Shown here: piece by piece, positions 95 to 21,463 of the stretch
Numbering within the stretch: position 1 is the stretch's first letter
Layout: each line of letters begins with the position of its first letter
Assembly (NCBI GenBank): GCA_045863295.1
Contig: BTWA01000026.1
Location: 25,197-89,196, forward strand
Length of the DNA: 64,000 nt
Source of the DNA: Candidatus Hydrogenedentota bacterium
GTDB lineage: Bacteria > Hydrogenedentota > Hydrogenedentia > Hydrogenedentales > SLHB01
Reading direction: 5' to 3'
The notes under the pieces: generated by a model
Seen by the model: the letters and a program-made list of their open reading frames with translations, nothing else
Databases searched by the model: none
What the model was told of the DNA's origin: nothing
Made by a program: the position numbers and the translations under genes

Positions 95-1912
95 ATGACC
101 ATGCCATACGAAGTTTCCGATGTAAGTCGTTTCGCCACGGAGGATCGGTGCAGCGTTGGGCTGCAACCTTGCAGTTGGCGCGCCCATCCCAATCGTTGCA
201 TTGCAGCAAACCTTTCCGTACCATGCACTGGGGTGGGCGATTGGGGGATTACAGCGATGGAAGTAGCCGTCCTGGAGTGTACCATCAGAGGGAAGACTGA
301 AGTCTTCACCGAAACGGTTCTCGACCGTTCCCTGTCCCCGGATGTCGTCCGCTTGTTTGTTGTGTCCGGCGATCGCATCGCGGAGATTTCGCGCCTGTTT
401 CCGGCGCTGCGCAATCTGGCGCCCGGCAAAAACCAACTCAATCTCCAGCGCACGTTCAACAAGCTGCGCGAGGGAGAGTGTGGCACGGTCTACCGTGACT
501 ATGTCTCGCTTGCCCGCATGCGCAGTAGTATGAAAACCCTGCTCTCGAATATGCGGCATACCCGCCGAAACGTGACGTGTATTGTCCAGATTCCCCCGCG
601 GATGTACACGCAACTTGAGGCGGATGTAAAACAACTTGGAATCCATCGGTCAACGTTTAGCGGCAGTGCCGGTTCCCCCGCCTCGCTATACCTGCAGATC
701 CTGCCCGATGTGGACATACCCCCGTATCTTGAAGCGAACTACATCGGGGCTTCGCGCTCTGTGCAGTTTGTACGGCGGATGATAGTCTTGGCGAGCCGAC
801 AGAACGTTCCCGTGCTCATCCAAGGCGATTCCGGCACGGGAAAGGAAATAGTCGCGAGAATGGTACATCGATGCAGGTTCAACGGTGCGGAGGACAAGGA
901 TTTCAAACCGGTTAATTGCTCGTCTATCCCCGATTCACTGCTCGAATCTGAGCTGTTTGGTCACGTGTCCGGCGCATTTACAGACGGAAAGAATACCCGT
1001 GACGGTCTGTGGAAAGCGGCAAACGACGGCACGCTGTTTCTGGATGAAATCGGCGAACTCAGCATGTCGAGCCAGGCGAAAATATTGAGGGCCATCGAGA
1101 CCAATACAGTGAGGCCGGTTGGCGCAGACAAAGACGAACCGGTCAAGGCAAACCTCATCATGGCCACCAACCGCGATCTGTTCGCGATGACAAAGCGCGG
1201 GGAATTTCGAGAAGACCTCTTCTTTCGAATTTGGGTGGGACGCATCGTGACGCCCCCGTTGCGCGAGCACCCCGAGGACATCCCCCTGTTGGCGAATTTT
1301 CTATGGAATAAAATCACAAACCAAAACGGCGTGACGCTGCCCGATGCGGTGACGGAATGCCTCGCCGAATATCCCTGGCCAGGCAATGTGCGCGAACTCC
1401 AATCCGTGCTGCGCTCCATGTGCATCGCTCACGGCAACGCCGTCACCACGCGCAAGCAAGTCGAGTTCGCCATGGACTACGCGGGGGTGCCCGCGAATGA
1501 ATTCTTCCGCGCCGACCGTGCCGTGGCGAAAAGCACGCGTCGCGCCACCCAATTGAAACAAACCCTGAAAGCCCAGGAAGCCATAGCCGTCCTGCGTGCC
1601 CTCGTCGGACAGGTCCAGAATTGCCCCACCCCGGGCCTTGCCGTGCAGGCCGGGCTGCCGCTCAGCATCTTCAATGTGCATCGTGATCTACTCACATTGT
1701 GCGAAGACCCGCTTTCATTTGGTTCAACGGAGATCTACAAAGCGGTCCTCGCGTTCGGGGGAAAACTGGGGCAGTATCTGCTCGCAGTGGACGCTAACCC
1801 CGATACGATCGGCGATCGCGCAACATGCCTCGAATTGTTGTCGGGTTCGGACGCGCTCGAAGAGCGTCTGACCAACTACTCGGCTGAACTCGTTAAAGCC
1901 CGCAGAAGTTGA
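95..1912 (+). CDS. Sigma54-interaction (bEBP, NtrC-like) AAA+ transcriptional regulator with atypical N- and C-terminal regions
   Basis: Walker A GDSGTGKE, ESELFGH.SGAFTDG (GAFTGA variant), GTLFLDEIG, FREDLFFR, WPGNVREL; SD AGGAG just before ATG 95. Confidence 0.9.
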   Translation: MTMPYEVSDVSRFATEDRCSVGLQPCSWRAHPNRCIAANLSVPCTGVGDWGITAMEVAVLECTIRGKTEVFTETVLDRSLSPDVVRLFVVSGDRIAEISRLFPALRNLAPGKNQLNLQRTFNKLREGECGTVYRDYVSLARMRSSMKTLLSNMRHTRRNVTCIVQIPPRMYTQLEADVKQLGIHRSTFSGSAGSPASLYLQILPDVDIPPYLEANYIGASRSVQFVRRMIVLASRQNVPVLIQGDSGTGKEIVARMVHRCRFNGAEDKDFKPVNCSSIPDSLLESELFGHVSGAFTDGKNTRDGLWKAANDGTLFLDEIGELSMSSQAKILRAIETNTVRPVGADKDEPVKANLIMATNRDLFAMTKRGEFREDLFFRIWVGRIVTPPLREHPEDIPLLANFLWNKITNQNGVTLPDAVTECLAEYPWPGNVRELQSVLRSMCIAHGNAVTTRKQVEFAMDYAGVPANEFFRADRAVAKSTRRATQLKQTLKAQEAIAVLRALVGQVQNCPTPGLAVQAGLPLSIFNVHRDLLTLCEDPLSFGSTEIYKAVLAFGGKLGQYLLAVDANPDTIGDRATCLELLSGSDALEERLTNYSAELVKARRS

Positions 1913-2126: not shown

Positions 2127-5100
2127 ATGGCGACATGGAAAACAGTCCGCGTCTTTATCTCCTCCACCTTCCGCGACATGCACGCGGAGCGGGACTACCT
2201 GGTCAAAGTGGTTTTCCCGCGGTTGCGAGAGCGGTTAGATCCGCACCGAATTCATCTAGTCGATATCGATTTGAGGTGGGGCATTACAGAGGAAGAAGCA
2301 GAGGACAACCGCGTACTCGACCTTTGCCTACAGCAAATTGACACCTGCCGCCCTTTCTTCATCGGCATCCTGGGCGAGCGCTATGGTTGGGTGCCCGGTG
2401 CTTTCGACGAGTCGGCTCTCTCGAAGTATGGCTGGATACAACACGCAACGGGTAAGAGCCTGACCGAACTGGAAATATTGCACGGCGTACTGCGCAATCC
2501 CGAGATGCGCAGTCATGCGTTCTTCTATTTCCGCAACCCTGCGTTTATTGATGACGTGCCCGTCACAAAACGAAGCGACCTGCGACCGGAGAACGCTGAA
2601 TCCAAAGATAAGCTGCTCAGTCTGAGAGAGGCCATTCGACAAACTCCTCTTTCGTACCCGCCAATGGAAAACTACCCTTGCCGTTACGCCGGGCTACGGA
2701 TCAACTGGCGGCTCGCGTCACAGAACCTTACCCAAGCCGACAGAGATGTGCTGCATACCTTGGCGGTGGACGGTGTAGTAGATTCAACCGAATACGCGGC
2801 ATTGGACGATCGGCTCCGGTCGGTGATCGACCAGAATAGCCACGTATTGCTGACTGGGCTTGAGATATTTGGGAACAGGGTATTTGACCAACTTTGGAGC
2901 GGCATCAAATTCGAGTACGAACTGCCCGATACCCCGTCAATTCATACGCTCCGGGAACGCGATCCACTCGCGGAAGATCAGGAATACCACGAGCGATTCA
3001 TGGAATCTCGGACACGGGTGTACATTGGCCGCGAGAATATTCAGCAGCAGCTTTTCGCCGTGGCCAGCAACGACGATACGTATCCATGCCTGGTAACCGG
3101 GCCGGCTGGCTCGGGCAAATCCGCCATACTTGCCAAATTTGCGACGGATTATTTGGCCGCGCATCCCGACGTGCTGGTCATACCTCATTTCGTCGGGGCG
3201 AGTCCCGGCTCGACAAGTCTCATGCACATGCTGCGTCGCTTCTGTCTGATCCTGGGCGATACGTTCGCTATAAAACACGTTCAAACGCAGGAAGAGAGCG
3301 AACAGTGGCAAGTCCCCGCCGAAGTCCCATTCGAACCTATCGAGCTCGCTTCCAGATTCAGGGATTATCTAAATCGTGTGCCAGGAGAAAAACGCGTCGT
3401 CTTTGTCATCGACGCTCTAAATCAACTCGACGAAACGGACAACGCGCATGCCCTTCATTGGCTGCCCCGCGAGTGGCCCACCCATGTGAAATGTATTGCC
3501 AGTTGCACTGCTCACGAGGATAATAACCCTGTCGTGCTGGCAGCATTCAAAGGGCGCCGCACGCACATTATCCGCGTACCGACGCTGACGGACGAAGAGC
3601 GCTTGGCCATTGTGACTGAGGTGCCCTCGCTAAGTGCAAAACGCCTCTCCTCAAGTCAGGTCCGTCTGCTGCTCGATAACCCGGCGACGAAAAACCCTCT
3701 GCTTTTGCTGGTCGCACTCGAGGAACTGCGTGGGTTCGGATCCTTCGATCAACTCAACGCCCGCATTGCCGCACTGCCCCGCGACGGCGATACCGTGACC
3801 GCGATTTTCACCCAGGTGATCGAACGTCTGGAAGAGGAATTTGACGCGCGGCAGGTGCGAAAAGTCCTTTCATGGCTCGCGTGCGCCCGAAGCGGACTGT
3901 CCGGGCGCGAACTACTAGAACTGCTCGAAGGCATAGGCGCATCAGAATCACGTTCGGACCTGTATCCCATCCTTCGCCAAATCCGCGCATACCTTCAGCA
4001 CCGTGGCGAGCTTTTCGATTTCTACCACGGAAGCTTCCGCGACGCCGTGGCCGGGAAATACGGTGCGCACGCCGGTGCCCAGGTCTTACATGCGGAGTTA
4101 GCCGCATACTTTCTCGCAGTGGCCGATCCAGGCGGGAACCGCTCTTGGACCGGGCAAAGCGCGCATAGCATCAATGAACTGCCTTTCCACCTCTACTCCT
4201 CTTGCGCCTACGAGACACTGGCCGCCGTACTGGGCGATACGATGTTTGCCGCGGCAAAATCAACGGGGGGCGCTGTCTACGACCTATTAACCGATTACCA
4301 GACCGCGATCCTCAGTTTTTCATCCGAGGGCAGTGATCAGACCCGCTTAGTTCAACTTGCCAGCATTTTGCGCCGATTTGCGCACGGACTCCACAACGCT
4401 CCCGAATGCAGCCTGCAACAGATACTTATTGGCATTGCAGCGCTGGAATCGCCAGACACATGTTTGGAGATGCAGGGAAACGTAATTGCCAATGAGCACG
4501 CGAGGACCGGCCCTGTTAAGCTTACCAGTTTCATTCCTCTGCACATGACTACCGGCGTCGCTCGGATCCCCGCGGATAACGATCGAGTCGTTGAGAATTC
4601 CGTTCTAAGACAAGCCTCCATTTTGTTGCGTTATAGAGGCGGAGAGTGGACAGAATTCTCGTCTGACTTCGAAGTGCTCGGAATGGGTTCGACCAATTCG
4701 GCCACCATGTCAACTATGGTCGCTGGCACGCAAGCCTTGGTGATGTGCAGCGCGAACGTTGCTCAGATTTACAGATATTGGCCCGTTGGCCAGCCTCTGA
4801 AACATCGCTGCACCCATCCCATTACTACAGCGGCCTGTTCGACGGATGATCGGTTCGTCCTGCTCGGATGCGCCGATGGCGCATTGGAACTGCTGATCTT
4901 GGAGGACGACGGGAGAGTCACAATCGAATCTAACCAATTAGGGACAATGGTCGTGGCGTCATGGTTTGATAGCGGTGGCGTCGCGGTAGCGGTGACTCGA
5001 AACGGTAGTATCCACTATCTACGGTGTGATTCGCATACTGTCACTTATTCGGCCCAAACCCCGCACCCGTGTGCTGCTGCATGCGGAGCCTGGCAGGGAA

Positions 5101-6437
5101 AAGCGTGTCTGCTATCCGAAGACAACCACCTATTCGTTCGTCGTCTGAATGCAGAGTTAGTTTGGGAAGACATGCTTCCGACTCGAGCGTACAGTCTGGC
5201 GTTTGCGGCTAAAACGGCCGATTCCGCTGCAACAATTGTATCAGGCCTGGAAGATGGTAATTTACAGGTGCGCGATGCCGAGTCGGGTAAACTCCAAGAA
5301 ACGATTCAGGTGAGCCATACCGCGTTGCAGCATGTCGAAATAGCACAAGCCGGAAATCTCATTCTGTGCCGCGACTCGGCACATAACGTCTATGTGATAT
5401 CGCCAAGACGAGGCGACGATGTCGCACGGTTCAGGTCTTGGCCGTTTTGCGGCCATATTCTCGATACTCACTGGAATGCACGGCTCAGAAGATTGTCGGT
5501 CGTCACCGCCGATGGTGAACCGTTAATAATCCACGAATCAGGTCATTCCGGCACCAATTGGAATATATCCCATGCGCCCAAGCTCGCCGCTCGGCTCGAC
5601 GATGCTAGTTTCGCCCCTGACGGCTCCATCACCGCACTCCATCGCGAACCGGGTGTAAGCCAGGTGTGGCGTCATTCTCCAGTCGGCAACAACGGGTCTA
5701 CTCCCGGCCGAACCCCTGAAACAGCCATTGCATTCAGAAGCCGGAGATTGTGGTCTGGACATGTGGCTCGTCTCTCACAACCTCAATGGCTTAAAATCGT
5801 GAAAGTTTCCCGATCAGGAAACGCATTTGCGATGTATTCCAATGCTGGGTTAATAAGTTGGGGGCGATTCCGGCTTTGGGGTATACGGCCGCATTGGGAA
5901 AAGTGGCCCAATCCAATCGACGAGTTCGCCATATCCGATAGAGGAACCGTAATCGTCTTGACACAGCAAACGGGCACGGCTATAGATAAACCACCAGCCC
6001 GGCTTCTTTTGTGCAAGGGTTTCAAGCACACATTGCTGAAAGATGGCTGGGGCGGGGGAACGCGTGGGATAGAGCGCGGAATGGCCAAACAGCTTCGGGG
6101 AATATCAATTAGCTGTGACGGACGAATTATCACGGCCATTGACCTCGCGCATAACCTGTGGGTATTCAATTTTGAACCCGACAGACCCGATGATCCTCCA
6201 AGTGGGGATATTGTGCTTTCAAACGTTGTAGCCTGCGAAACGTCGTCGTCAGGCGTCTTTTTCGCTGCATTGCACCTTGACATGACGATCCAAGTACTCT
6301 CGCGCGAAATGAAGGCCTGTCCCCAGAATCTCGGAAAACTCCTGCTGCCTGGCCAGGCTAACCATTTTCGCATCGATGAAACAGCGCGCTGTCTGATTGT
6401 CTCAGGACACAATTATGTTCAGTCGGTGAGATTCTAG
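2127..6437 (+). CDS. DUF4062 - NACHT/STAND NTPase - degenerate WD40 propeller protein (NLR-like, TEP1/NWD-like architecture)
   Basis: N-terminal RVFISSTFRDMHAERD…IDLRWG…FFIGILGERYGW…SLTELEI; Walker A GPAGSGKS; Walker B VVFVIDALNQLD; C-terminal WD-like repeats (LGCADGALEL, SGLEDGNLQVRD). Confidence 0.88.
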   Translation: MATWKTVRVFISSTFRDMHAERDYLVKVVFPRLRERLDPHRIHLVDIDLRWGITEEEAEDNRVLDLCLQQIDTCRPFFIGILGERYGWVPGAFDESALSKYGWIQHATGKSLTELEILHGVLRNPEMRSHAFFYFRNPAFIDDVPVTKRSDLRPENAESKDKLLSLREAIRQTPLSYPPMENYPCRYAGLRINWRLASQNLTQADRDVLHTLAVDGVVDSTEYAALDDRLRSVIDQNSHVLLTGLEIFGNRVFDQLWSGIKFEYELPDTPSIHTLRERDPLAEDQEYHERFMESRTRVYIGRENIQQQLFAVASNDDTYPCLVTGPAGSGKSAILAKFATDYLAAHPDVLVIPHFVGASPGSTSLMHMLRRFCLILGDTFAIKHVQTQEESEQWQVPAEVPFEPIELASRFRDYLNRVPGEKRVVFVIDALNQLDETDNAHALHWLPREWPTHVKCIASCTAHEDNNPVVLAAFKGRRTHIIRVPTLTDEERLAIVTEVPSLSAKRLSSSQVRLLLDNPATKNPLLLLVALEELRGFGSFDQLNARIAALPRDGDTVTAIFTQVIERLEEEFDARQVRKVLSWLACARSGLSGRELLELLEGIGASESRSDLYPILRQIRAYLQHRGELFDFYHGSFRDAVAGKYGAHAGAQVLHAELAAYFLAVADPGGNRSWTGQSAHSINELPFHLYSSCAYETLAAVLGDTMFAAAKSTGGAVYDLLTDYQTAILSFSSEGSDQTRLVQLASILRRFAHGLHNAPECSLQQILIGIAALESPDTCLEMQGNVIANEHARTGPVKLTSFIPLHMTTGVARIPADNDRVVENSVLRQASILLRYRGGEWTEFSSDFEVLGMGSTNSATMSTMVAGTQALVMCSANVAQIYRYWPVGQPLKHRCTHPITTAACSTDDRFVLLGCADGALELLILEDDGRVTIESNQLGTMVVASWFDSGGVAVAVTRNGSIHYLRCDSHTVTYSAQTPHPCAAACGAWQGKACLLSEDNHLFVRRLNAELVWEDMLPTRAYSLAFAAKTADSAATIVSGLEDGNLQVRDAESGKLQETIQVSHTALQHVEIAQAGNLILCRDSAHNVYVISPRRGDDVARFRSWPFCGHILDTHWNARLRRLSVVTADGEPLIIHESGHSGTNWNISHAPKLAARLDDASFAPDGSITALHREPGVSQVWRHSPVGNNGSTPGRTPETAIAFRSRRLWSGHVARLSQPQWLKIVKVSRSGNAFAMYSNAGLISWGRFRLWGIRPHWEKWPNPIDEFAISDRGTVIVLTQQTGTAIDKPPARLLLCKGFKHTLLKDGWGGGTRGIERGMAKQLRGISISCDGRIITAIDLAHNLWVFNFEPDRPDDPPSGDIVLSNVVACETSSSGVFFAALHLDMTIQVLSREMKACPQNLGKLLLPGQANHFRIDETARCLIVSGHNYVQSVRF

Positions 6438-6462: not shown

Positions 6463-7584
6463 ATGAACACTGCCAAGGACTACTTCGTGGGCGCAACTAG
6501 CGTCGTCAGTATGTGTTTACTTGTAAGTTCATTCGTGCTCATGTATCGCAACTTCTTTACTGAATCGCACTATTCGTGGTGGCTCATCGGCGGCCTCGCT
6601 TTACAGTTTCCAGTGATGGCAAAGATAATGGCGAAGCTCTTTCGCGGATCCGTCCGGCCGTCTGATGAAGTTATCAATCATGCTTTCGATCGCGTCTACG
6701 AACAGAGACTTCGTTCGGTTGTATTCAAATTTCCCGAAGGCTGGCGCTACAAGAAGCAAGGACGCGGCGTGCACAGTTTCTACATGCAAGAATGTGGCCA
6801 CGCGGCAGTAATACACGTCGAGCTTACATATCTCTTCGAAACCGAGATTGACTCGCTGGAGGGGTACTTGGCGTACGCAACGGAATTTGTGCGTGGGCTA
6901 AACGCCGAACTTATGTTTAACCGTGTCGCAGATCGATGGGGAATGCGTATTCACGAGTTTGCGTACAAGTCACCGCGTAGTTGCGGGCAACGGCTGACTG
7001 TGCCCTATCATGGCACTGAATATGGGTTCTTTTTGCGGACCGATGTCGCGGACCTGGCGCAGCCTGCAGGTAAGCTCTTCGATCACTTCTTGAGCCACGT
7101 GCGATTTGATCCCCCACCACTAAAACCGCAACTGGCATTTGGTGGACAATTGTCAGTTGCACTTCCAGCGGAATTCATGCCCGTCCAGACCCAAAAAACG
7201 GACACCGCAACTTGGAAAAGCACGACTCGAAAAGACTGTAGCATCTGGTTGCAGTACCGTCACGAATGTGAAGCACCAATGCGCCCTGAACTACTTCGCC
7301 CGCTGCTGAAAAGCTGCCCCCGTCCCGAACAGGGCGCGAACGACTTCGTCCGGGGACTAAAAAAGGGTCAAATCAGACTATCTGAAAATGGATTTGGGGG
7401 ATACATCTATTATCAAGCCACGGATAGGTGGGGTTGGTTAGCGGCGGTGGGAGACCTACCGTCGGGCGGGCGTGTTCTGTTCTGCCTTGACGACAAAGAC
7501 CCTGAACAGGCTCCATATTATGGGACATACTTTTATGAGCAAATCTCAATTGAAATTCTAGTTACCTTGTCGGAACGGCTGTAG
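6463..7584 (+). CDS. Hypothetical membrane-anchored protein (2 N-terminal TM helices plus soluble domain)
   Basis: 373-aa ORF 25 nt after the NACHT gene; two hydrophobic stretches in the first about 60 aa. Confidence 0.65.
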   Translation: MNTAKDYFVGATSVVSMCLLVSSFVLMYRNFFTESHYSWWLIGGLALQFPVMAKIMAKLFRGSVRPSDEVINHAFDRVYEQRLRSVVFKFPEGWRYKKQGRGVHSFYMQECGHAAVIHVELTYLFETEIDSLEGYLAYATEFVRGLNAELMFNRVADRWGMRIHEFAYKSPRSCGQRLTVPYHGTEYGFFLRTDVADLAQPAGKLFDHFLSHVRFDPPPLKPQLAFGGQLSVALPAEFMPVQTQKTDTATWKSTTRKDCSIWLQYRHECEAPMRPELLRPLLKSCPRPEQGANDFVRGLKKGQIRLSENGFGGYIYYQATDRWGWLAAVGDLPSGGRVLFCLDDKDPEQAPYYGTYFYEQISIEILVTLSERL

Positions 7585-7684
7585 TGGCGCAAGGCGACAC
7601 AATAATGATGAAATATGACATATGACCGATTCTACAAGATTGAAAGAGACGAGGTAAGGCTGACAGGAGCATGACTGGAAGAAG

Positions 7685-9445
7685 ATGACCTATACTTCGA
7701 AAATACGCGGGGGGTGGGAACCCGTTCGAGCTTTTTGGCGCGTTTGGGGGTGGCCTATTATCTGGGCGCTTGGGGTGGCGTCGTTTGTGTGCGGATATGT
7801 GGGGTTCGCGCAATATTACCAGTCACAGGCCGAAGTCCATTCGGTGTTGGAACTGGTGTACCGCACGCTCCAGCTCTACGTCCTCCAATCCGGAGCGTTG
7901 GACTATCCGGTCCCGCCTGCGCTTGAGGTCGCGCGGTTTCTTGCGCCCGCCGTGTTCGGTTACACGGCAACCCGCGCGCTGACATCGCTGCTGCGCGAAC
8001 AGTTTCTCACGTTATGGCTATGGCGGCGGCGGGAGCACGTCGTTGTGTGCGGACTTGGGCGCAAGGGCCTCCAAATCGCAAAAGACTTCAGCAACCGGTA
8101 CTCCGTCGTTGTTATCGAGCCCGATGCGCACAACGACCGCATCCGTCACTGCCGCGACTTTGGCGCGCGCGTCCTCATCGGCGACGCATCGGACATCGAC
8201 CTGCTACGGCAGGCGGGCGTGGCGCGCGCGCGTTACGTCGTCGCCACGACGGGCGACGACGGGGTAAATGTGGAAATCGTGCTCCACGCCCGCGAACTGG
8301 TGCAATCGCGCCCCGCGATGTTCTCGCATACCTGCACGTGCCTGGTTCACATTGTCGACTCCACATTGTGTGCGGTCTTCAAAATGGCGCCGACTTTTAC
8401 CTCAGGCAAGGATTGGTTCGAGGCAACGGTTTTCAACATATACGAAAACTGCGCAAGGCAACTGTTCGAAGTGCAACCGCTGGACCGCGTGCCCATCGGC
8501 GTTTCTAGCCGGGTGTCGGTCCACCTCGTCGTAATCGGATTCGGCCAAATGGGTCAGGCTGTCGCGCTGCAGGCGGCACGCGTGGGCCATTTCGCAAATG
8601 GACGCCGGCTGCGCATCAGCGTCGTCGATCGAAACGCGAAGGAAGCACACGCCGCCTTCCTTGCGTTGTATCCGCGATTTGGCGACATCTGCGACATCGA
8701 GTTCGTTCACGCACTCGCGGGAAGCGCGGAAGTCAACGAACGCTTGATCGCTTGGGCGACCGAAGAGAACGCGATGCTGACCGTTGCCATTTGCCTCGAC
8801 AACGACACGCGCAGTCTGACGCGGGCCCTGGCTATCGCGGAGAAGCTCCGGGAGTATAACGTGCCCGTTCGTGTTCGGATGGAAGAAGACACGGGACTGG
8901 CCAGCTTGCTCGTATGCGAGGGCGTATGTCATCCTTCGATTGCATACATCCGCGCATTTGGCCAGATTGATCGCGTGTGCGCGCTGAACCGGCTACTGTC
9001 CGAAGAGCAGGACCGCAAGGCGCGCCGGCTCCACAATCGGTTTATCGCCGTGGCGCGGCAAGATCTCAAGAGACCGAAAGATGACCCGGCGCTTCTGGAC
9101 TGGGAGAAACTCCCCGAAACATACAAGGAGTCGAACCGGCAGGCGGCGGATCATCTTCCGGTGAAACTGCGCGCAATCGGAATCACAGAGAATGGCGATC
9201 TCACACGCGAATTGAAAACACGTGAGATCGAAATTCTAGCCCGCATGGAACACGCGCGCTGGATGGCCGAGCGCCAGCTTTCTGGCTGGAAGTACGCGCC
9301 CGGGCCGAAGAACGACACGAAGAAGACGAACCCAAACCTCGTGGCATGGTCGAAACTCGATCGCGCGAATAAGGACAAAGATCGCGGCGCGGTCCGCGAA
9401 ATGGTAAGTTGGCTCAAAGTCCCAACGCACAGGAGTGCTACATGA
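7685..9445 (+). CDS. Channel-like TM segment + TrkA_N (RCK, NAD-binding) domains + two RyR repeats
   Basis: TM-pore helix-TM N-terminus; HVVVCGLGRKG, IGDASD.DLLRQAGV.RA; second Rossmann motif VVIGFGQMGQ; RyR motifs WEKLPETYKESNRQAA and LARMEHARWMAERQLSGWKY…PNLVAWSKL. Confidence 0.88.
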   Translation: MTYTSKIRGGWEPVRAFWRVWGWPIIWALGVASFVCGYVGFAQYYQSQAEVHSVLELVYRTLQLYVLQSGALDYPVPPALEVARFLAPAVFGYTATRALTSLLREQFLTLWLWRRREHVVVCGLGRKGLQIAKDFSNRYSVVVIEPDAHNDRIRHCRDFGARVLIGDASDIDLLRQAGVARARYVVATTGDDGVNVEIVLHARELVQSRPAMFSHTCTCLVHIVDSTLCAVFKMAPTFTSGKDWFEATVFNIYENCARQLFEVQPLDRVPIGVSSRVSVHLVVIGFGQMGQAVALQAARVGHFANGRRLRISVVDRNAKEAHAAFLALYPRFGDICDIEFVHALAGSAEVNERLIAWATEENAMLTVAICLDNDTRSLTRALAIAEKLREYNVPVRVRMEEDTGLASLLVCEGVCHPSIAYIRAFGQIDRVCALNRLLSEEQDRKARRLHNRFIAVARQDLKRPKDDPALLDWEKLPETYKESNRQAADHLPVKLRAIGITENGDLTRELKTREIEILARMEHARWMAERQLSGWKYAPGPKNDTKKTNPNLVAWSKLDRANKDKDRGAVREMVSWLKVPTHRSAT

Positions 9446-9723
9446 GCTACGCCCCAAGACCAATCGACACATCAGGTGTGGTGTTGACAGAAGAAATTGC
9501 AAAGCTGACGGAACTGCTCGCGGAAAATGCCCACGAGCATTGGGCCAAGCAGCGTCTCAGCGATGGCTGGCGCTACGGTCCCACGCGGGACGATGCCAAG
9601 AAAGAACATCCCTGCCTCATTCCCTACGGTGATCTCCCCGATTCCGAAAAGACATACGACCGAAAAATGGCCATAGAAACCCTGAAGGTAATCCTGGCCC
9701 TCGGCTATCGCATAGCGAAATAG
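9442..9723 (+). CDS. Stand-alone RyR (ryanodine receptor repeat) domain protein, 93 aa
   Basis: YAPRPIDTS.V.L…LAENAHEHWAKQRLSDGWRYGPTRDDAKKEHPCLIPYGDLPDSEKTYDR; SD AGGAG at 9431; ATGA overlap with the upstream stop. Confidence 0.92.
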   Translation: MSYAPRPIDTSGVVLTEEIAKLTELLAENAHEHWAKQRLSDGWRYGPTRDDAKKEHPCLIPYGDLPDSEKTYDRKMAIETLKVILALGYRIAK

Positions 9724-9765: not shown

Positions 9766-12552
9766 ATGAAAACGGTCGTCGTGACTGGCGATGTCATGGT
9801 GGACCACCACCTTTACGAAGGCAAACGCTTGACGGCATCCGCGACCGATCAACCGGGCTTTAAAGTGTGCCGGCAGCATGGAGGCGCCATGGCCGTTTGC
9901 GATCTCGTTAACGCGGTCATAAACCAGTCGATAACGGACTCTGCTGCCGAGATGGAATGCAAGGCGAAGGCCGTAGAAGACGCCAGACAGGCCTGCGCGA
10001 AAGACAGTGAAAAGGAAGCTGCACAACAGAAACTCGCGGAGGCGGAAGAGGCCCTCCAGAAACATAAGCGGGTAAGAGAATCTGACTGGAAAGCATGCTT
10101 CGGTCTGACGACGCCCCTGGAACACGAGATACCCTGCGGGCATCATGCCCTCTCCATATGGAAACCATTCCAAACAATGGAAGGCAATGAGGAGAAGAAA
10201 GTCTGGCGGGCGGATTTGCTGATGGGCTACGGCCACGATGACGCTCCAGCAAAATGCGACACGGAGAAGTGCGAGTATACACCCAAAGTCCTTTCCCCGC
10301 CGCCGCCACGCGCGGATGTCCTGGTGTTGGACGACGGCGGCTTCATTTTTCGACACCGTTTCCAACGCGATTGTTGGCTTTTGCCATCGGCGCAGGAAAG
10401 TAAGCCCCATTGGATTGTAATGAAGATGAGCGGGCCGGTCTGCCAAGGCGATCTGTGGTCGCACCTCAAGACGTATGGAGATCGGCTTATCGTCGTGGTC
10501 TCCGCGAACGATTTACGCCAAGAGTGCGTACATTTGGGCGAAGGACTTTCATGGGAGCGCACCGTAGAAGAACTGCGGGACGCGCTGCTAACAAACCCTG
10601 CATTGAGCGACTTGGTGTCCGTTCCGCGCCACTTAATTGTGCTGTTCTCGGCCGACGGCGCGCTGTGGTTGGATAGGTCTGGCGAACAACTCAAAGCGAC
10701 GCTTGTCTTCGACGCCGGTGGCATTGAGGGCTGGTGGGGGCGGAAGATCGAGGGCAAGGCCTTTGGATACATGTCGTGCATGGTTGCCTCTGTTGTTCGG
10801 GCGGCGATGCACGATTCAGAGGAACCGGCGATCGATCCGGCGGTTCGGGCAGGCCTCGCCGCAATGCGGGACCTTGCCCGGTGGGGACACGGTGAGGTAA
10901 ACGACGGCTGGCCATCCGGCTTTCCGTGCGACCGGTTGGCGCGGGTGATCGTTCGGGGCGGCAGCGGCTTCGCCGTCACGCGCGTCCCGTGGAGCGAGGC
11001 CGAACGAAACCTCTATGCCCCCGCACCCGAAAATCCAGACGGGAAGTCTCCTTGGCGGATTGTCGAGACGTCTCAGTGCCCCTTTGGAGACGGAAAGACA
11101 CCCTCGCTGCTCGGCCTGGCCTCGCAGGTAGTGATCTATGGAGAACTGGCCATTCGCGCACTCCCCCATGCCCGATTTCGCAACCTGCTAACAGCCGACC
11201 GTATTGAAATCGAGGCCCTGCGATCCATCGAAGTGCTGATGAACCGGTATCTCGACGAGACAAAACCAAAGCGGCCGCTCTCGATAGGCGTGTTTGGCCC
11301 GCCGGGCGCCGGCAAATCATTTGGCGTCCGGCAGCTTGCCGACGACATCTTTGGCGCAAAAGCATGGTTGGAATTTAATCTGTCACAGTTCAAGGATTCC
11401 AAGGATCTAATCGGCGCATTTCATCAAGTGCGGGACACGGTGCTAAGCGGGCAAACCCCTACCGTCTTCTGGGATGAATTCGATTCCCGCGAATATGAGT
11501 GGCTCCAGTACCTGCTCGCGCCGATGCAGGATGGGCGCTTCCAGGAAGGCCAGATCAGTCACTACATTGGCAAGTGTGTCTTCATTTTCGCCGGAGCGAC
11601 CGCCTATTCGTTTAACGAGTTTGGACCTGCGAAGCCGCCGGACAAACGGTTCGATGCAGACGCGTGGAAAAAATTCAGCTTGCGCAAAGGCCCGGATTTC
11701 CACAGCCGCTTGGACGCCTATTACGACGTGCTCGGGCCCAATCCGCGCACGGTATTGCCCCACGATGGCTGCGGCTCGCAACGCGTACCGGACCCAACAG
11801 ATGTCTGCTACCCGCTGCGGCGGGCCTTGCTGATTCGATCTCTCTTGAAAGCCAAGAATTCGGCGCTCGATTTCGATCCGGAATTGCTCCACGCCCTGCT
11901 GCAAACTGCCGAATACACGCACGGGGCACGCTCCCTCGAAAAACTCGTTACAGCACTCATTCCCACAAAAAAAGGCCAGTCAATCCGGCGCTCGGCATTG
12001 CCGCCGCCGGCCCAACTCGCGATGCACGTGACGGAACCAGAACAGTTCATACACATGCTGGGCCGACACGTCCAATATCGCAATCCTGAAACGATCAATG
12101 CCATTGCACAAGGCATCCACGAAACGTGGCGTGAGCTTTCGGCAATAGAGCATTGGAAGATGCAGCCCGCCTATGACATGCCATACGAATTGCTTGGAGA
12201 TGTGGAAAAGGATGAAAACCGTGCGGCCGCCCGCCGCATCCCGGACATCCTCGCCCTCGCCGGACTGCGGATCGAGCAGTCCGATCTGCCACACGGCGCC
12301 GGCGTCGAAGACCAGTTGAAGCAACCGCATCAACTGCGGCGGTTGGCAGAAGCCGAACACGAAAGGTGGATGGCGCATCGCATCAAGAACGGATGGCGTT
12401 ATAGCGAGCAGCGTGACGACGCAAAGAAGCTGCACCATGCGCTCGTGCCGTATGCCGACTTGGCTGAGGCCGACCAGAAAAAGGATCAGAATTCGGTGAA
12501 GCACTTCCCCGAAATGCTGCGCCGCGCGGGTTACCGTATCGTTTGGGCATGA
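9766..12552 (+). CDS. PfkB/HldE-like N-terminal region + P-loop (AAA-like) ATPase + two C-terminal RyR repeats
   Basis: MKTVVVTGDVMVD start; Walker A GVFGPPGAGKSF; Walker B VFWDEFD; RyR motifs IAQGIHETW…PYELL..VEKDENR and LAEAEHERWMAHRIKNGWRY…LVPYADL; SD AAGGAGG. Confidence 0.88.
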   Translation: MKTVVVTGDVMVDHHLYEGKRLTASATDQPGFKVCRQHGGAMAVCDLVNAVINQSITDSAAEMECKAKAVEDARQACAKDSEKEAAQQKLAEAEEALQKHKRVRESDWKACFGLTTPLEHEIPCGHHALSIWKPFQTMEGNEEKKVWRADLLMGYGHDDAPAKCDTEKCEYTPKVLSPPPPRADVLVLDDGGFIFRHRFQRDCWLLPSAQESKPHWIVMKMSGPVCQGDLWSHLKTYGDRLIVVVSANDLRQECVHLGEGLSWERTVEELRDALLTNPALSDLVSVPRHLIVLFSADGALWLDRSGEQLKATLVFDAGGIEGWWGRKIEGKAFGYMSCMVASVVRAAMHDSEEPAIDPAVRAGLAAMRDLARWGHGEVNDGWPSGFPCDRLARVIVRGGSGFAVTRVPWSEAERNLYAPAPENPDGKSPWRIVETSQCPFGDGKTPSLLGLASQVVIYGELAIRALPHARFRNLLTADRIEIEALRSIEVLMNRYLDETKPKRPLSIGVFGPPGAGKSFGVRQLADDIFGAKAWLEFNLSQFKDSKDLIGAFHQVRDTVLSGQTPTVFWDEFDSREYEWLQYLLAPMQDGRFQEGQISHYIGKCVFIFAGATAYSFNEFGPAKPPDKRFDADAWKKFSLRKGPDFHSRLDAYYDVLGPNPRTVLPHDGCGSQRVPDPTDVCYPLRRALLIRSLLKAKNSALDFDPELLHALLQTAEYTHGARSLEKLVTALIPTKKGQSIRRSALPPPAQLAMHVTEPEQFIHMLGRHVQYRNPETINAIAQGIHETWRELSAIEHWKMQPAYDMPYELLGDVEKDENRAAARRIPDILALAGLRIEQSDLPHGAGVEDQLKQPHQLRRLAEAEHERWMAHRIKNGWRYSEQRDDAKKLHHALVPYADLAEADQKKDQNSVKHFPEMLRRAGYRIVWA

Positions 12553-12616: not shown

Positions 12617-14497
12617 TCACGCCGGCAGGTGCGGTCCGTGGAACGCCAGCGATGCGGCCCACTCGTAGTTCTCCGAGGCCATGATGTCGCTTGCCGTTCG
12701 GACGTGGGCGCGAATTTCGTCGGGGGTTTCCGCTTTCCGAAGGTCCTCGGCGACATCGTTCAACAACCTCGCCATATTCGCGGACCGGCTCGAGATCCGC
12801 TCGCCATCGAGCAGGGTGTTGATCGCCTGAAACGTTGCGCCCCACAACGGCAGCAGCACGGTGATGCCAAACAGGACGGCCGTGACCGTGCCCATGCCAT
12901 GCTTGCCCGGTTCGCCGTGGCCGATCCCTATAGCGTGGAAGAAGGCGGCTACCAGCGTCAGCGAGAAGAGCACCAGTCCCACGCGGTGCAGCGTCTTTGG
13001 CAACTTCAGTTTCCTCTCGACATTATCCATGTGCCATTGGGCCTGCGGCGTGATCCAGTCCTGCTCGATGAAATCTCGCAATGCCAGCCACCCGGCCTTT
13101 TCGTCCGCGGGATGTAGCGCGGGGCCGGAGGCGCGCATGATGGCCACGTCCACCCAGTCCGCGGGCCGCCGGTAAAAAGGAAGGTGGGATACATCGCGGC
13201 GTTGCCCCGACGCGGTCATTTCGCCCAGCAAGTCCGTGTACAATTTCGCGCGCAGGCGCTCGGCGAAATGGCGGTCGTGCAGCCATTTTTCGTGCCAGCG
13301 CTCCTTTCGCGATATGCGCAGCAACGCCAGAATTGCGACCATCGCCAGCACTTCGAGAAAGGCCGCCGCATACCACGACGGCGCAAACAACATCTGCATG
13401 ACGGAAACCGTTACGCCGGAAGCGGCGAGTGTAAAAAGCCCTCGCGCGCTTCTAAAGTGCAGATTCTGGTAGTGAAGCGACAACACGTCGCTCCGGGCAT
13501 AGTGCGCCAGCGTTTGCCATGTCTTGTCATTGAGAACCCACTCCGGCGGGTGAGTTTTCTGCGCGGTGTCCAGCATCGAATCCTGGTGTTCGCGAAATTT
13601 CCGCGCAATCGATTCCGCCGAAACCGCGGTGTCGCGGTTGTACGCCGCCAGCGCGTGATAACTTGGCGAAAACTCCTTCGCAGTCTGCGGGAGTTCGCAC
13701 GTTTTCAATTTGACTGGCGTCTCTTCTGAATCGGAAGATTCCGGCACTACTAACTTCGCGGGAGTTCGAGGGTTGTCCGCGTTAATCCATAGAATGGTTC
13801 GCCCGTGCAGCAGCGCGTGCTTCACGATATCGCCGGTCCCCCCCCATCCTTTGGCGGGTTTCCCGTCCCACACGGCGATGAGTATGTCGCACTGGTGCAC
13901 GACCAACTCGCCCGCTTCCCGGTACAGACAGTCTCGATTCGAACCGTGCGCGTCCAGCATGCCTGCGATTCCCGGCGATGCGTCCAGCGCGAGGAGCTTG
14001 CGAAACGCCTCCAAACTCGGCGCGTCGAAATCGTGTTCGTATTCCTCGGCATCAAACGGTAGAACCACCTGCAATTGGGAGTCCTTCCGCGCCAGTACAG
14101 CCTCCGCCACGATAATGTCCGCGCCCTGCGCCAACGCCGAAACGACGCGCCATCGCAATGGTGTCGTCATGGACGGATCGACCACGGCCGGTGTCACCGG
14201 TACGGCCGGCCAAATCCACTTCAGCGCGGCAACCAACGCCCGATCGGCCCGCCTCTTGATGGTCTGTTGATTGGTGTGTGGCCCAAGCGGATTTGATCCA
14301 GCCGATTCCAGCACGCGCTGGACATGATCCAACAGCGCGTCCACGGCCAGTCGCACGCCCGCTTCATCTCCCAACGCCCGATGGCCTGTCACGCCGATCC
14401 GCAACTCGTACGGTATGGGTTCAGGCAGGCCGACGGAACTCGCGGAACTCCCGCTCGTTTCACTTCCCACTACAGGAGACATGATCTTCCCTCGCAC
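12617..14497 (-). CDS. SLOG-superfamily nucleotide-binding domain fused to tandem SLATT-like 2-TM domains
   Basis: LRIGVTGHR, VSALAQGAD, VVLPF, YREAG..VV..CDILIAVWDG…GGTGDIV (SLOG); two TM hairpins with WHEKWLHDRHFAERLR and terminal ENYEW (SLATT-like). Start may be ATG 14482. Confidence 0.82.
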   Translation of the reverse strand: MRGKIMSPVVGSETSGSSASSVGLPEPIPYELRIGVTGHRALGDEAGVRLAVDALLDHVQRVLESAGSNPLGPHTNQQTIKRRADRALVAALKWIWPAVPVTPAVVDPSMTTPLRWRVVSALAQGADIIVAEAVLARKDSQLQVVLPFDAEEYEHDFDAPSLEAFRKLLALDASPGIAGMLDAHGSNRDCLYREAGELVVHQCDILIAVWDGKPAKGWGGTGDIVKHALLHGRTILWINADNPRTPAKLVVPESSDSEETPVKLKTCELPQTAKEFSPSYHALAAYNRDTAVSAESIARKFREHQDSMLDTAQKTHPPEWVLNDKTWQTLAHYARSDVLSLHYQNLHFRSARGLFTLAASGVTVSVMQMLFAPSWYAAAFLEVLAMVAILALLRISRKERWHEKWLHDRHFAERLRAKLYTDLLGEMTASGQRRDVSHLPFYRRPADWVDVAIMRASGPALHPADEKAGWLALRDFIEQDWITPQAQWHMDNVERKLKLPKTLHRVGLVLFSLTLVAAFFHAIGIGHGEPGKHGMGTVTAVLFGITVLLPLWGATFQAINTLLDGERISSRSANMARLLNDVAEDLRKAETPDEIRAHVRTASDIMASENYEWAASLAFHGPHLPA

Positions 14498-15560: not shown

Positions 15561-15606
15561 GCTCATAACCCAATGGTCGTAGGTTCGAATCCTACCCCCG
15601 CTACCA
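15561..15606 (+). repeat. 3' half of tRNA-Met(CAT), initiator-like; att-site remnant copy 1
   Basis: G-CTCATAA-CCCAATGGTCGTAGGTTCGAATCCTACCCCCGCTACCA: anticodon loop, T arm, acceptor strand and CCA present; no D arm or 5' acceptor strand upstream. Confidence 0.9.
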
Positions 15607-15616
15607 ATTATGTATC

Positions 15617-15648
15617 AGGGACTTGCAAGCAATTGCAGTTCCCTTTTT
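15617..15648 (+). terminator. Rho-independent terminator-like hairpin after tRNA fragment 1
   Basis: AGGGACTTGCAA-GCAA-TTGCAGTTCCCT-TTTT (imperfect stem). Confidence 0.65.
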
Positions 15649-15666
15649 GTGTGCCCAAAATGGCCC

Positions 15667-15688
15667 ACTGTACACGAAACTGTACACG
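15667..15688. repeat. Tandem 10-bp direct repeat ACTGTACACG, candidate integrase arm-type sites
   Basis: Copies at 15667-15676 and 15679-15688, about 60 nt from the att-like tRNA fragment. Confidence 0.5.
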
Positions 15689-16021
15689 GTCCGGCGGTGA
15701 AGACTGGACACGTGGCACTCCGTCGCACGTTGCTCCCCACCGCCGTTCATCGAACTCCCGGAGTGCAACAGCCTCTTTGCGTTTACCTATGGCACAATCG
15801 ACCAAGACGACGCCGTGTAGAGCGGCATGCAGACGTTGCGCGAGATACCGCTGGACTGGTGAAATTGGGTCCTGTAGAATCACCACTGCGTCGGCATTCA
15901 GTCTCAACCGGAATCTTCTTAAACCAAAATTTGGTTGATGACAACGGTGCTTCCAGCGGACAAACGCGATTTCGAGTGCTGGAACCAGGCTCCGTATCGG
16001 CCCGATTCATCTGACCACGCC

Positions 16022-16105
16022 CACACCGAAGGCTCCGGCGAACACTATCTGCCGCCCTATTGGATGGGCCGCTACTACGGTCTCAACGCGGTGCCTCTCA
16101 AGTAA
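16022..16105 (+). pseudogene. C-terminal relic of a gene related to the 34729-36915 protein
   Basis: HTEGSGEHYLPPYWMGRYYGLNAVPLK* aligns with …REGYHYLLAYYLGRAHGFISE*. Confidence 0.55.
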
Positions 16106-16137
16106 CATCGAGGACAGCATTGTCGCCGGTCAGGCCT

Positions 16138-18243
16138 CTATTGCTGCTCATGCTGTGTGCTTGACGCTTCGATGACGCACGTCTCGGGACGGAGTCGCCG
16201 CGCGAGTTCCGTCGCCGTCATGGCATTGGTCGGGACGGGAAGGTCGTTATTCAGCCAATCTGCCCCGGCCACCCATTGGGTCTCTCCGGTCTCAAGTGCG
16301 CCAATGGATGGCGAGCGCCCGCCGTTGCCCTCAGCGATTCCAGGCACCAGCACGCCGGTGCCATCCAGCGGGCCGCCCGGCTTGGGGCGAAAATCATACT
16401 GAGCCGGATCCACAAAAAATTGCCCTTCTGACCCCGGCACAAGGGTCGCATTAGAATCGATGGCGCCCGGTTCAGACGTGAGTGGAAGCACGAACTCCCG
16501 CTCGGCATTCTTGTAGTCGCTACGCCAGGACATGCGGTCGAGAAACGAATAGGCAACATTGTTGCGCACGCGCCACCCGGCGCGTTCGGCGGAAGAAATC
16601 TCCGGCTCGAAGACAACGATGAGCCCGCCTTTTAGATTGTTCACCACAAGCGTGTTGTTGTATCCCTCCAGTTGGAAGCCCTGCATCTTACAGCCGACGG
16701 AAGCGTTCCAGACCAAGTTGTGATGGAAAACGATATCGCGCCCCTGAATATCCACGCGATAGCCAATGCCGCGAATATCGTGAAGCCAGTTGTGATTGAC
16801 CACTGTACCCGACATTCTCCGTCCGATCGGCACATACAGCGACGAAACATCCACGCAATATAAACCGACGTTGAACACGTGGCAGTATTCCACCTTGGCG
16901 GGGCTCGCACCCCGCGGGTAGATAGCCACGCCGCCAACGTTGTACACCGTATTGCGGCGGATAATGTTGGGAGACGGGGCGCGCGCGGCGGCTTTTTCGT
17001 TGCCCGTTGAAGTACCGGTTCGCCTCGTTCGCGCATTGGCCAGGCTTTCCGCGCCGTCTATGGTGATGCCGGGACCGGGATGTCGGCCGTGCAGGTTGCT
17101 GTCGTGCACGATGCAATTCTCCACCCGGTTGCCCGAGCCTTCGACCTCCAGCGCGCCATCCACCGCCCATTCAATCAGGCAACGCTCAAGGACATTCTCG
17201 TCGCCTTCGATGCGAAGATTTTTCTGCAATTTCTCCGCCGTCTTAAGGCCGGGGAATAGTTTCGGCGTCGATGGATACAGAAATCGGCACCCGCGCAGAA
17301 CGATGCGTCGGCTTTGCGCAAAGCGCACATTGCATTTGTGAAACTCCAGACCGCTAATGACGATATTGCTGACGCCGTTGCCTCCCATTCCAGCGACGCG
17401 CGCCTTTACCGAGACCGCGTTCTGCCGCGGCTCCAGGCCATCGGGAGCAATCAGAAGCAGTTCGCGCTGCTCCACGTCATGCCACCATTCGCCGGGCGCA
17501 TCGAGTGCCCCGCGGGCCGCTATGAAAAACCGGTTGCCTTCTAAGCCGTAGCTCGCGATTCGTTCCGGCATCGAGTCCTCGCCCCAGGCTCTGCCTTCCA
17601 TATCCGTCGAATCGTAGCGCAGCGTCGCGCTGCCGGATTGATGCTCGGTCACAACGCGGGTGAAGCAATTGTTGCCTTTGCTCAGCTTCAGGTAGACCAA
17701 TCCACCGCGCAAATCCTGGCCCGATTCCGCCATCGCCGGGCTTTCGATCTGGCCGAGCGTAGTGCCATGACCTGTTAGTGCCCACTTTTTCGCCGGCTGC
17801 CAGTTCTCTTCCCACGAGCAATTGGGCCACCGCGCCTCGACCAGCATGCGTTCATCAAAAAAGACCGCTTCAATGGACTCCTTTGCATCTACTTTCATCG
17901 CCCATATCGTGTCACTCTTTTGCGTCCAAGTGCCGGTGACGATGTCGGAGCCATCAATGATGACGCGTTCGTTTTGGTAACTCGTAAACGTGATGGACTT
18001 TTCTTCGTCGCCGGAAGTTCTGAGTATGGCCATCTCCCGGTAGACCCCGGCGCGGATGAAACAGGTATCGCCCGCTACAGCCGCGTCGGCGGCACGCTGA
18101 ATTGACTTAAACGGCCGATCGATAGCCGTGCCCGAATTCGAATCGTTTCCGTCCGGCGCCACAAAATAATTCGCGGCATACAGCGGCGCCGGCGGAATCA
18201 GAAACAGGGCGGTCATGGAACAGAGCAAAAGCGTGTGCTTCAT
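16138..18243 (-). CDS. Secreted right-handed parallel beta-helix protein (pectate-lyase-like; probably carbohydrate-active)
   Basis: Signal peptide MKHTLLL…; YFVAPDGNDSNSGT…PFKSIQRAAD…GDT.FIRAGVYRE; Asn-ladder repeats; C-terminal FVDPAQYDFRP…SIGALE. Confidence 0.8.
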   Translation of the reverse strand: MKHTLLLCSMTALFLIPPAPLYAANYFVAPDGNDSNSGTAIDRPFKSIQRAADAAVAGDTCFIRAGVYREMAILRTSGDEEKSITFTSYQNERVIIDGSDIVTGTWTQKSDTIWAMKVDAKESIEAVFFDERMLVEARWPNCSWEENWQPAKKWALTGHGTTLGQIESPAMAESGQDLRGGLVYLKLSKGNNCFTRVVTEHQSGSATLRYDSTDMEGRAWGEDSMPERIASYGLEGNRFFIAARGALDAPGEWWHDVEQRELLLIAPDGLEPRQNAVSVKARVAGMGGNGVSNIVISGLEFHKCNVRFAQSRRIVLRGCRFLYPSTPKLFPGLKTAEKLQKNLRIEGDENVLERCLIEWAVDGALEVEGSGNRVENCIVHDSNLHGRHPGPGITIDGAESLANARTRRTGTSTGNEKAAARAPSPNIIRRNTVYNVGGVAIYPRGASPAKVEYCHVFNVGLYCVDVSSLYVPIGRRMSGTVVNHNWLHDIRGIGYRVDIQGRDIVFHHNLVWNASVGCKMQGFQLEGYNNTLVVNNLKGGLIVVFEPEISSAERAGWRVRNNVAYSFLDRMSWRSDYKNAEREFVLPLTSEPGAIDSNATLVPGSEGQFFVDPAQYDFRPKPGGPLDGTGVLVPGIAEGNGGRSPSIGALETGETQWVAGADWLNNDLPVPTNAMTATELARRLRPETCVIEASSTQHEQQ

Positions 18244-18305
18244 CGTGCCAGGTTCCTCAAAATGGGTTCGCGCGCCTTGGCCATTTATCGCGCCTCCGTT
18301 GCCCA

Positions 18306-21407: not shown

Positions 21408-21453
21408 GCTCATAACCCAAAGGTCGTAGGTTCGAATCCTACCCCCGCTACCA
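21408..21453 (+). repeat. 3' half of tRNA-Met(CAT); att-site remnant copy 2
   Basis: Same 46-mer as 15561-15606 with one substitution (CCCAAAGG vs CCCAATGG); no 5' half upstream. Confidence 0.9.
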
Positions 21454-21463
21454 ATTTGATTTC

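Follow-up and report, generated by a model that had tools for sequence, protein, structure and literature searches.

The stretch of DNA analysed here, referred to below as the window, comprises 64,000 nt of a Candidatus Hydrogenedentota genome (GenBank assembly GCA_045863295.1, contig BTWA01000026.1, positions 25,197 to 89,196 of the forward strand). An open reading frame (ORF) on its + strand, open from 7685 to 9445, encodes a channel-like protein of 586 amino acids (aa), in which two membrane helices are followed by two RCK domains and a C-terminal RyR domain. The following features were assigned, with the respective basis in brackets:

7685..9445, + strand: protein of 586 aa with the domain order pore, RCK, RCK, RyR (ORF, Pfam, model, structural matches)
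7718..7825, + strand: outer membrane helix TM1, residues 12-47 (model; hydropathy 1.74 at 24-42)
7844..7882, + strand: pore helix, residues 54-66, with conserved Y59, Q63, L64 and F/Y65 (model, conservation)
7871..7894, + strand: filter-equivalent segment QLYVLQSG, residues 63-70; the family consensus is QLF(V/T)LESG, no GYG (alignments)
7916..8026, + strand: inner membrane helix TM2, residues 78-114, with near-invariant R84 and P88 (model, conservation)
8030..8473, + strand: RCK1 (TrkA_N), with GLGRKG and E145 (Pfam, conservation, structural alignment)
8516..8995, + strand: RCK2, with GFGQMG and D315 (model, conservation, structural alignment)
9002..9415, + strand: four-helix RyR domain (Pfam, model, alignment to RyR Tad)

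The protein was modelled with AlphaFold2 on the basis of a 113-sequence alignment, which yielded a predicted local distance difference test score (pLDDT) of 92.9 and a predicted TM-score (pTM) of 0.88. In the model, the pore helix lies between TM1 and TM2, and this membrane part is followed by two domains of the Rossmann (RCK) type and, at the C-terminus, by a single RyR domain of four helices. A first-pass annotation, made from the letters of the sequence, had read a membrane helix, a pore-helix-like segment and a second membrane helix ahead of two GxGxxG Rossmann domains, and the model bears this out. Pfam matches were found for TrkA_N at residues 119-207 (E 1e-25) and for RyR at residues 506-577 (E 4e-11), and NCBIfam gave TrkA/Kef/Kch matches below threshold only. 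A Foldseek search with the full model ranked GsuK of Geobacter sulfurreducens (PDB 4GX0/4GX5) first (E 7.5e-9), and residues 18-440 could be aligned structurally with GsuK 18-479 (Z 18.9, root-mean-square deviation (rmsd) 8.8, 353 residues aligned). The MthK/GsuK-like architecture that had been proposed is thus supported by both searches; the protein shares with these channels the pore of two transmembrane helices and the RCK gating domains, and specifically with GsuK the presence of two RCKs after the inner helix.

Residue conservation was counted in a main alignment of the query and 112 of 120 listed homologues (113 rows; eight short or long forms were omitted), and in a separate set of 142 further relatives. 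A chance ORF was ruled out by 588 relatives, found at E<=0.001 among 7994 candidates, and by 2490 representatives of 50%-identity clusters matched by a profile of the pore region. When new full-length matches of this profile were inspected, 74 of 76 ended in RyR. The pore-RCK-RyR proteins are a large family with a fixed architecture. The bacterial pairing of RyR with a pore that had been noted from the sequence is real; it is not a rarity, as it occurs in thousands of clusters.

In the N-terminal part of the model, a helix at residues 12-47 is followed by a short helix at 54-66 (which contains LVYRTLQLY), a coil at 67-77, and a helix at 78-114. Both the model and the hydropathy indicate two membrane helices only ahead of RCK1; TM2 of the query is moderately hydrophobic (best 19-residue mean 1.13 versus a family mean of 1.47). 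The pore region was also folded alone (96 aa), and the best model, with a pLDDT of 87 (the other four had 62-70), was compared with 48,161 chains. The best match was again GsuK (Z 8.5, rmsd 4.2, 95 aligned), followed by KCNQ4 (Z 8.2 and 8.0) and the MthK pore (Z 8.0, rmsd 2.8, 78 aligned), and rows 1-29 were all pore-loop channels. A topology of membrane helix, pore helix, loop and membrane helix is predicted by the full model as well as by that of the isolated region. Rank 30 of this search was PDB 9NYI, HalA (Z 6.7, rmsd 3.2, 82 aligned), the channel-like effector of the Hailong anti-phage system. Conservation in the pore region is high at Y59 (109/113), Q63 (102/113), L64 (111/113), R84 (111/113, and 142/142 of the further relatives) and P88 (101/113). 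The assignment as a pore was made because the top rows of the search were uniform, the region lies directly before RCK1, and these residues are conserved.

The absence of TVGYG, already stated in the first-pass annotation, holds for the query, and the K+ signature is absent throughout the family: the pore loop contains GYG, GFG or GLG in one of 113 rows (a GFG), and GYG or GFG in none of the 142 further relatives. The family has the motif Q-x-x-(V/T)-L-E-S-G at the filter position, and the query has QLYVLQSG, with Q68 where the family often has E. QLFTLESG is the commonest form in genome loci (11/80 rows; 3 of 79 segments were omitted from the locus pore-segment alignment). Position 68 is occupied by E in 44, Q in 22, D in 16, N in 14 and H in 7 rows of the main alignment, i.e. 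it is acidic in 60 of 113 relatives; the counts for the further relatives are 133 for Q63, 88 for E68, 59 for LES and 21 for TLES. The acidic residue that most relatives have at position 68 suggests a pore for cations and not a hole without a filter. From the residues at the filter we infer a cation pore of low selectivity, and non-selective conduction is plausible. The filter segment as a whole is variable, with deletions in some relatives.

The motif resembles the filters of bacterial Na+ and Ca2+ channels. In NavAb, according to the accessible text of PMC12919392, the filter is TLESW; Gln172 forms a bond with the Glu177 backbone and is held in place by Arg185. The spacing from Gln to Glu in the family motif is the same as in NavAb, and an invariant Arg is nearby. 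Unlike the bacterial Na+/Ca2+ channels NavAb, CavMr and NsvBa (accessible parts of PMC12919392 and PMC7041947), the family has no Trp after the filter Ser (position 70; 0/113 and 0/142), the model has no second pore helix (residues 67-77 are coil), and an S1-S4 voltage sensor is lacking; no native bacterial Nav chain was among the best 50 entries of the pore-only search. The lack of such a chain is compatible with membership, but with the Trp and the second helix missing as well, we treat the similarity to bacterial Nav channels (BacNav) as a resemblance rather than as demonstrated homology. In contrast to GsuK and MthK, the protein has no TVGFG/TVGYG filter, no detected TrkA_C-type lobes, GxGxxG in both RCKs, an additional C-terminal RyR domain, and immune-type gene neighbours.

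The two alpha/beta domains of the model comprise residues 116-263 and 278-437. The nucleotide-binding motifs are nearly invariant in RCK1 (G123 109, G125 111, G128 111, E/D145 113 of 113) as well as in RCK2 (G285 113, G287 111, G290 113, D315 112). The alignment to GsuK and KtrA spans residues 117-441, and the RCK pair was aligned with KtrA (Z 18.8, rmsd 3.1) and with MtDMI1 (Z 17.1, rmsd 4.1, 330 aligned). The gating rings of the plant nuclear channels CASTOR/DMI1 thus align with the RCK pair, and no CASTOR/POLLUX/DMI1-type Pfam match was found at E<=0.1. Each chain of GsuK, as far as described in the available text of PMC3510474, contains two RCKs, and its activators ADP and NAD+ bind to the GxGxxG motif of RCK2. 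The nucleotide gating proposed in the first-pass annotation is likely.

The four C-terminal helices of the model (residues 440-577) form a single RyR unit with a degenerate first half, and the match to PF02026 scored 43.5 bits versus a cut-off of 27.4. An RyR assignment had been made at the outset, in the plural; the domain stood, the repeats did not, as there is one four-helix unit and Pfam covers residues 506-577 only. The unit is 31% identical over 51 aa to the phage protein RyR Tad gp68 (E 2e-7), and H523, W526, K542, N549, K565 and D566 align with H129, W132, K147, H154, K170 and D171 of RyR Tad. Conservation in the 113 rows is 111 for H523, 102 for W526, 91 for K/R542 and 95 for D566, and D566 is replaced by Asn in 12 of 113 relatives and in many genome loci. 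The C-terminus also matches Repeat12 of the animal receptors RyR1-3 (E 5e-6). For RyR Tad, the available text of bioRxiv 10.64898/2026.06.04.730250 reports that gcADPR binding of pocket mutants is about 100-fold weaker, and for the phage enzyme RyDEP a site of H75, W78, H100 and D117, with H75/D117 as the glycosidase dyad, is given in the accessible part of PMC13232231. RyR Tad and RyDEP thus have in common with our protein the PF02026 four-helix domain and the aligned H, W, K/R and D pocket residues. They differ in being soluble phage anti-defence sponges or glycosidases, whereas the RyR domain described here is encoded by the host, forms one chain with a pore, and does not have the second, phosphate-binding pocket His.

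These residues bear on the question which domain senses the signal. One alternative is that the RCKs are the gate sensor, responding to falling NAD+/ATP or to ADP-ribose at the GxGxxG sites, and that the RyR domain is an off-switch that cleaves or soaks up a cyclic signal. The near-invariance of GxGxxG and the D/E in both RCKs and the activation of GsuK by ADP and NAD+, with the motif in its RCK2, are compatible with this view, as is the alignment of H523 and D566 with the catalytic dyad H75/D117 of RyDEP. In contrast, the replacement of D566 by Asn would abolish acid catalysis, and in the available text of PMC13232231 six of eight RyDEP homologues bound signals and none of the eight cleaved them. 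We regard this alternative as unlikely, albeit worth keeping in mind, and consider the RyR domain to be no weaker a candidate sensor than the GxGxxG folds, because the H, W and D with which phage RyR proteins bind cyclic ADP-ribose (cADPR) are retained.

The genes and elements around the channel gene are the following:

95..1912, + strand: sigma-54-type AAA+ activator, located upstream of the cluster; the module in locus L015 also has a relative at its flank
2127..6437, + strand: TEP1-like DUF4062 (TIR-like)-NACHT-WD40 protein of 1436 aa, S-x-T-E-x-E intact (profile, architecture)
6463..7584, + strand: 373-aa protein with an N-terminal hydrophobic segment (ORF)
9442..9723, + strand: stand-alone RyR protein of 93 aa; overlaps the channel stop by 4 nt
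9766..12552, + strand: 928-aa protein with a PfkB/HldE-like fold, a P-loop ATPase and an RyR domain (structural match, motifs, Pfam)
12617..14497, - strand: SLOG-like domain and a SLATT-like region with four membrane helices (matches below curated cut-offs; faces the + strand genes)
15561..15609, + strand: copy of the 3' end of tRNA-Met (48/49 nt), right end of an island of ~34 kb
21408..21457, + strand: second copy of the tRNA-Met 3' end (50/50 nt), closing a further island of 5.8 kb

The 1436-aa protein has the TEP1/NWD1 architecture, and its DUF4062 profile matched human TEP1 (E 2e-38) and KpSwz (E 6e-5) with the S-x-T-E-x-E motif aligned. The family is described, in the accessible part of bioRxiv 10.64898/2026.05.01.722283, as hydrolysing NAD+ to ADP-ribose, and the 1436-aa protein is a candidate for a combined sensor and NADase. 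For the 373-aa protein neither a family match nor a recurring family among the related loci was found. The 93-aa protein has retained both His of the pocket as well as its W and D, and the second pocket His is also retained in the RyR domain of the 928-aa ATPase. These two proteins and the channel account for all three RyR genes of the whole genome. In the 928-aa protein, Walker A (GPPGAGKS at 511) and Walker B (FWDE at 568) are intact, and the N-terminal ~470 aa match stand-alone PfkB with TM-scores of 0.64-0.68 by target and 0.47-0.49 by query. GAGD is a PfkB motif, and its absence from the consensus of this protein family suggests that the PfkB-like part may be a non-catalytic sensor. SLOG is a weak assignment, with no match in this copy and E 8e-5 to 0.05, below the cut-off, in 5 of 11 relatives scanned. 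A reading frame of five codons with a good ribosome-binding site lies at 7671-7688, and its stop overlaps the channel start codon, which makes translational coupling possible. Scans for promoters and terminators gave numbers in the range of chance (4 versus 5.9 expected and 20 versus 15.2 expected, respectively).

The cluster is situated in the ~34-kb island, and the intact tRNA-Met lies upstream of the window (G000:C26:6742-6818). This setting among immune-type genes does not appear in the first-pass annotation of the channel. The island also carries another DUF4062-NACHT gene and two WD40 genes, and no integrase family was matched in the 13 ORF stretches scanned in and beside it. At G000:C26:7494-17640 (locus L085), upstream of the window, the additional DUF4062-NACHT gene lacks a propeller and is followed by the two WD40 genes, which are long; together they are possibly a split receptor with exchangeable sensor modules. 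The two tRNA-Met 3'-end copies delimit islands that lie in tandem; the second island (15610-21457) carries a beta-helix gene and a gene for 867 aa. A recurring protein of ~340 aa adjoins the channel or a DUF4062 gene in five loci (L085:11724-12791 on the - strand, L001, L002, L015 and L032); it has no Pfam match and is probably exported cargo.

To describe the neighbourhood of the family, we used 80 loci from many phyla; many of the contigs are short, and 22 loci have a flank of at least 15 kb. The window and these loci served as seeds for the neighbour profiles; L098 has the same gene order and gene lengths as L015 and does not count as independent. A second RyR protein was present in 30 of the 80 loci, TIR or DUF4062 in 31 (TIR genes in 19), the PfkB-ATPase-RyR protein in 17, SLOG in 12, a RelA/SpoT-like protein in 12, and NUDIX in 15. 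The respective numbers for the 22 long loci are 13, 14, 8, 4, 6 and 9. At least one partner beyond NUDIX or IMPase was found in 49 of the 80 loci; 17 of the 22 long loci have at least one partner. For comparison, when the own genome was divided into 276 tiles of 20 kb, TIR or DUF4062 occurred in 2, both of which lie in this island; one genome is a thin control. The channel has a patchy distribution, i.e. it is present in 13 of 54 genomes of the bacterial family, or 9 of 33 good ones, and four of seven kin stretches have partners (one of them repeats L015).

The RelA/SpoT-like nucleotidyltransferase ends in RyR, and some copies have weak matches to TPR-S and SLOG (LSDAT). It was found at L014:12773-15265, L020:13883-16369 and in ten more loci, with NUDIX in 10 of the 12. 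Its travelling with NUDIX suggests a second kind of signal, and the two are possibly a signal synthase and its eraser. Further fusions also occur. In a single case (P0154, 816 aa) a SLOG-like domain is fused ahead of the pore-RCK-RCK-RyR chain. A six-helix voltage-gated-type K+ channel with intact TVGYG, an unrelated channel type, is fused to a single RyR repeat at L069:1821-3086 (+ strand), directly upstream of a pore-RCK-RyR gene, and this fusion occurs in three clusters (P0265-P0267). At L076:629-2440 and L074:2-781, a 603-aa protein ending in RyR immediately precedes the channel; by its H...HD pattern, in a part that has no Pfam match, it resembles an HD phosphohydrolase.

Taken together, the channel is likely the membrane-depolarising output of an anti-phage signalling island. 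More specifically, we give an evenly balanced chance to the view that a nucleotide-gated, weakly selective cation pore is the output of an NAD-derived immune signal. By homology, the DUF4062-NACHT-WD40 protein, which is TEP1-like, would respond to infection by forming oligomers and cleaving NAD+. The resulting product would bind to the pocket of H523, W526 and D566, and the channel, presumably an assembly of four subunits that conducts cations, would be opened when an ADP-ribose-type nucleotide fills this pocket. On the model of GsuK, the tandem RCKs would form a gating ring that is tuned by NAD/ADP/ATP at the two GxGxxG sites and that pulls TM2 open. Ions would then leak via the filter without a K+ signature, the membrane would depolarise, and the cell would stall. 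The stand-alone RyR protein may buffer or cleave the signal and thereby set a threshold, and, speculatively, the PfkB-ATPase-RyR and SLOG-SLATT proteins could be parallel readers of the same signal.

A number of observations weigh against an immune channel of this kind. For the pore, just one of the five models of the isolated region exceeded a pLDDT of 71, and Z values of ~8 are modest for a helical bundle. Foldseek with the pore region gave nothing at E<=0.001 (best MthK, E 0.19), a 77-sequence pore profile searched against the PDB had as its best match a K2P channel at a non-significant E of 0.79, and the same profile searched against Pfam gave no Ion_trans or other channel family among the best 25 of 30 matches. 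For the ligand, the second pocket His (H154 of RyR Tad, H100 of RyDEP) is N549 here, and the family has S in 69, T in 16, N in 14 and H in 13 of 113 rows, so that the ligand may differ or bind weakly; furthermore, no clear pattern was seen when pocket residues were compared with partner type across the loci. The described DUF4062 enzymes, according to the available text of bioRxiv 10.64898/2026.05.01.722283, make linear ADP-ribose and act as NAD-depleting killers, and a downstream effector would then not be needed. The neighbour counts overstate the association, because the profiles were seeded from the same loci and related genomes are not independent. No partner beyond NUDIX/IMPase is present in 5 of the 22 long loci, in 31 of all 80 loci, and in three of the seven kin loci (L100-L102). 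The partner set varies (TIR, DUF4062, or RelA/SpoT-like plus NUDIX), and a tRNA or tmRNA gene lies inside just 3 of the 80 loci. PADLOC, with a library of 2023 that predates Thoeris types V-XI, gave no hit to a described effector, and neither the channel nor the RyR proteins nor the SLOG-SLATT gene are represented among its models.

The loci without partners lead to a different explanation, namely a channel with a general role in stress or metabolism, which would sense adenine nucleotides or alarmones, adjust the membrane potential, and be ordinary island cargo rather than a defence effector. The lone copies of L100-L102 lie among housekeeping genes (APS kinase, rhomboid, peptidases), the family is large (one Atlas cluster of it has 1090 members), and the RelA/SpoT-like RyR neighbour with its frequent NUDIX companion also fits such a role. 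The enrichment of TIR, DUF4062-NACHT, SLOG and SLATT neighbours over the own-genome background, the patchy presence and the island location argue against it, and in three partnerless copies (L035, L036 and L060) the RyR pocket residues are lost, as if the pocket decays once the signal source is gone. We consider a stress channel to be an improbable but serious competitor. A non-conducting membrane receptor or scaffold with a vestigial pore, which would recruit the RyR-ATPase or the stand-alone RyR protein via RyR-RyR pairing, is very unlikely: the filter varies and has deletions in some relatives, the hydrophobicity of TM2 is weak in this copy, phage RyR domains dimerise via helices 1 and 4 (accessible text of bioRxiv 10.64898/2026.06.04.730250 and PMC13232231) and the locus encodes three consecutive RyR proteins, but Y59, Q63, L64, R84 and P88 are as conserved as the ligand sites, and a canonical TVGYG channel also occurs as a fusion with RyR.

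The signalling output that we favour follows a logic that is shared with Thoeris, i.e. a TIR-fold enzyme, an NAD-derived signal, and a membrane effector. Type X of Thoeris has an ion-channel effector according to the available part of bioRxiv 10.64898/2025.12.03.692087, the main text of which, as far as accessible, contains no RyR, RCK or TrkA term; the supplement may list the effector. Unlike Thoeris, this copy has no stand-alone ThsB-type TIR beside it, the enzyme is a DUF4062-NACHT-WD40 protein, and more genes are involved. The DUF4062 NADases of the Swarozyc/TEP1 type share the architecture and the glutamate motif with the 1436-aa protein, and differ in being described as direct NAD-depleting enzymes; neither RyR nor channels are mentioned in the accessible text of that preprint (bioRxiv 10.64898/2026.05.01.722283). 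CASTOR/DMI1, TRPM2 and the animal ryanodine receptors have other pores and are far larger proteins, so that they are analogies only. TRPM2, a cation channel gated by ADP-ribose, makes use of SLOG and NUDIX domains. The protein lacks defining features of the K+ channels, of BacNav and of Thoeris.

Neither a bacterial RyR-RCK channel nor this gene cluster is described in any paper that the literature search returned, and RyR and TrkA do not occur as terms in PMC9503650 or PMC7159879. Automatically assigned cluster names already show the domain pair, so that the architecture is on record and uncharacterised. Phage RyR domains either bind cyclic ADP-ribose signals or cleave them, and in the accessible text of the two 2026 preprints on them (bioRxiv 10.64898/2026.06.04.730250 and PMC13232231) no cellular protein that uses an RyR domain as a receptor is described. 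A widespread bacterial channel with an RyR pocket is an obvious candidate for the cellular receptor of such signals. Our broadest proposal, which is tentative, is that the RyR domain is the host receptor for ADP-ribose-type immune signals and was copied by phage sponges, that the family is a bacterial 'ryanodine-domain channel', in which a K+-channel scaffold with a Nav/Cav-like acidic filter is opened by an NLR-like NADase via the RyR pocket, and that the system is modular, with exchangeable signal-makers (TIR, DUF4062, RelA/SpoT-like). If the channel is gated via its RyR domain, it would represent a new class of immune effector and would add a pore-loop channel family with its own filter. 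If true, the 586-residue protein would also provide a model for the long-debated direct action of cADPR on animal RyR channels via Repeat12.

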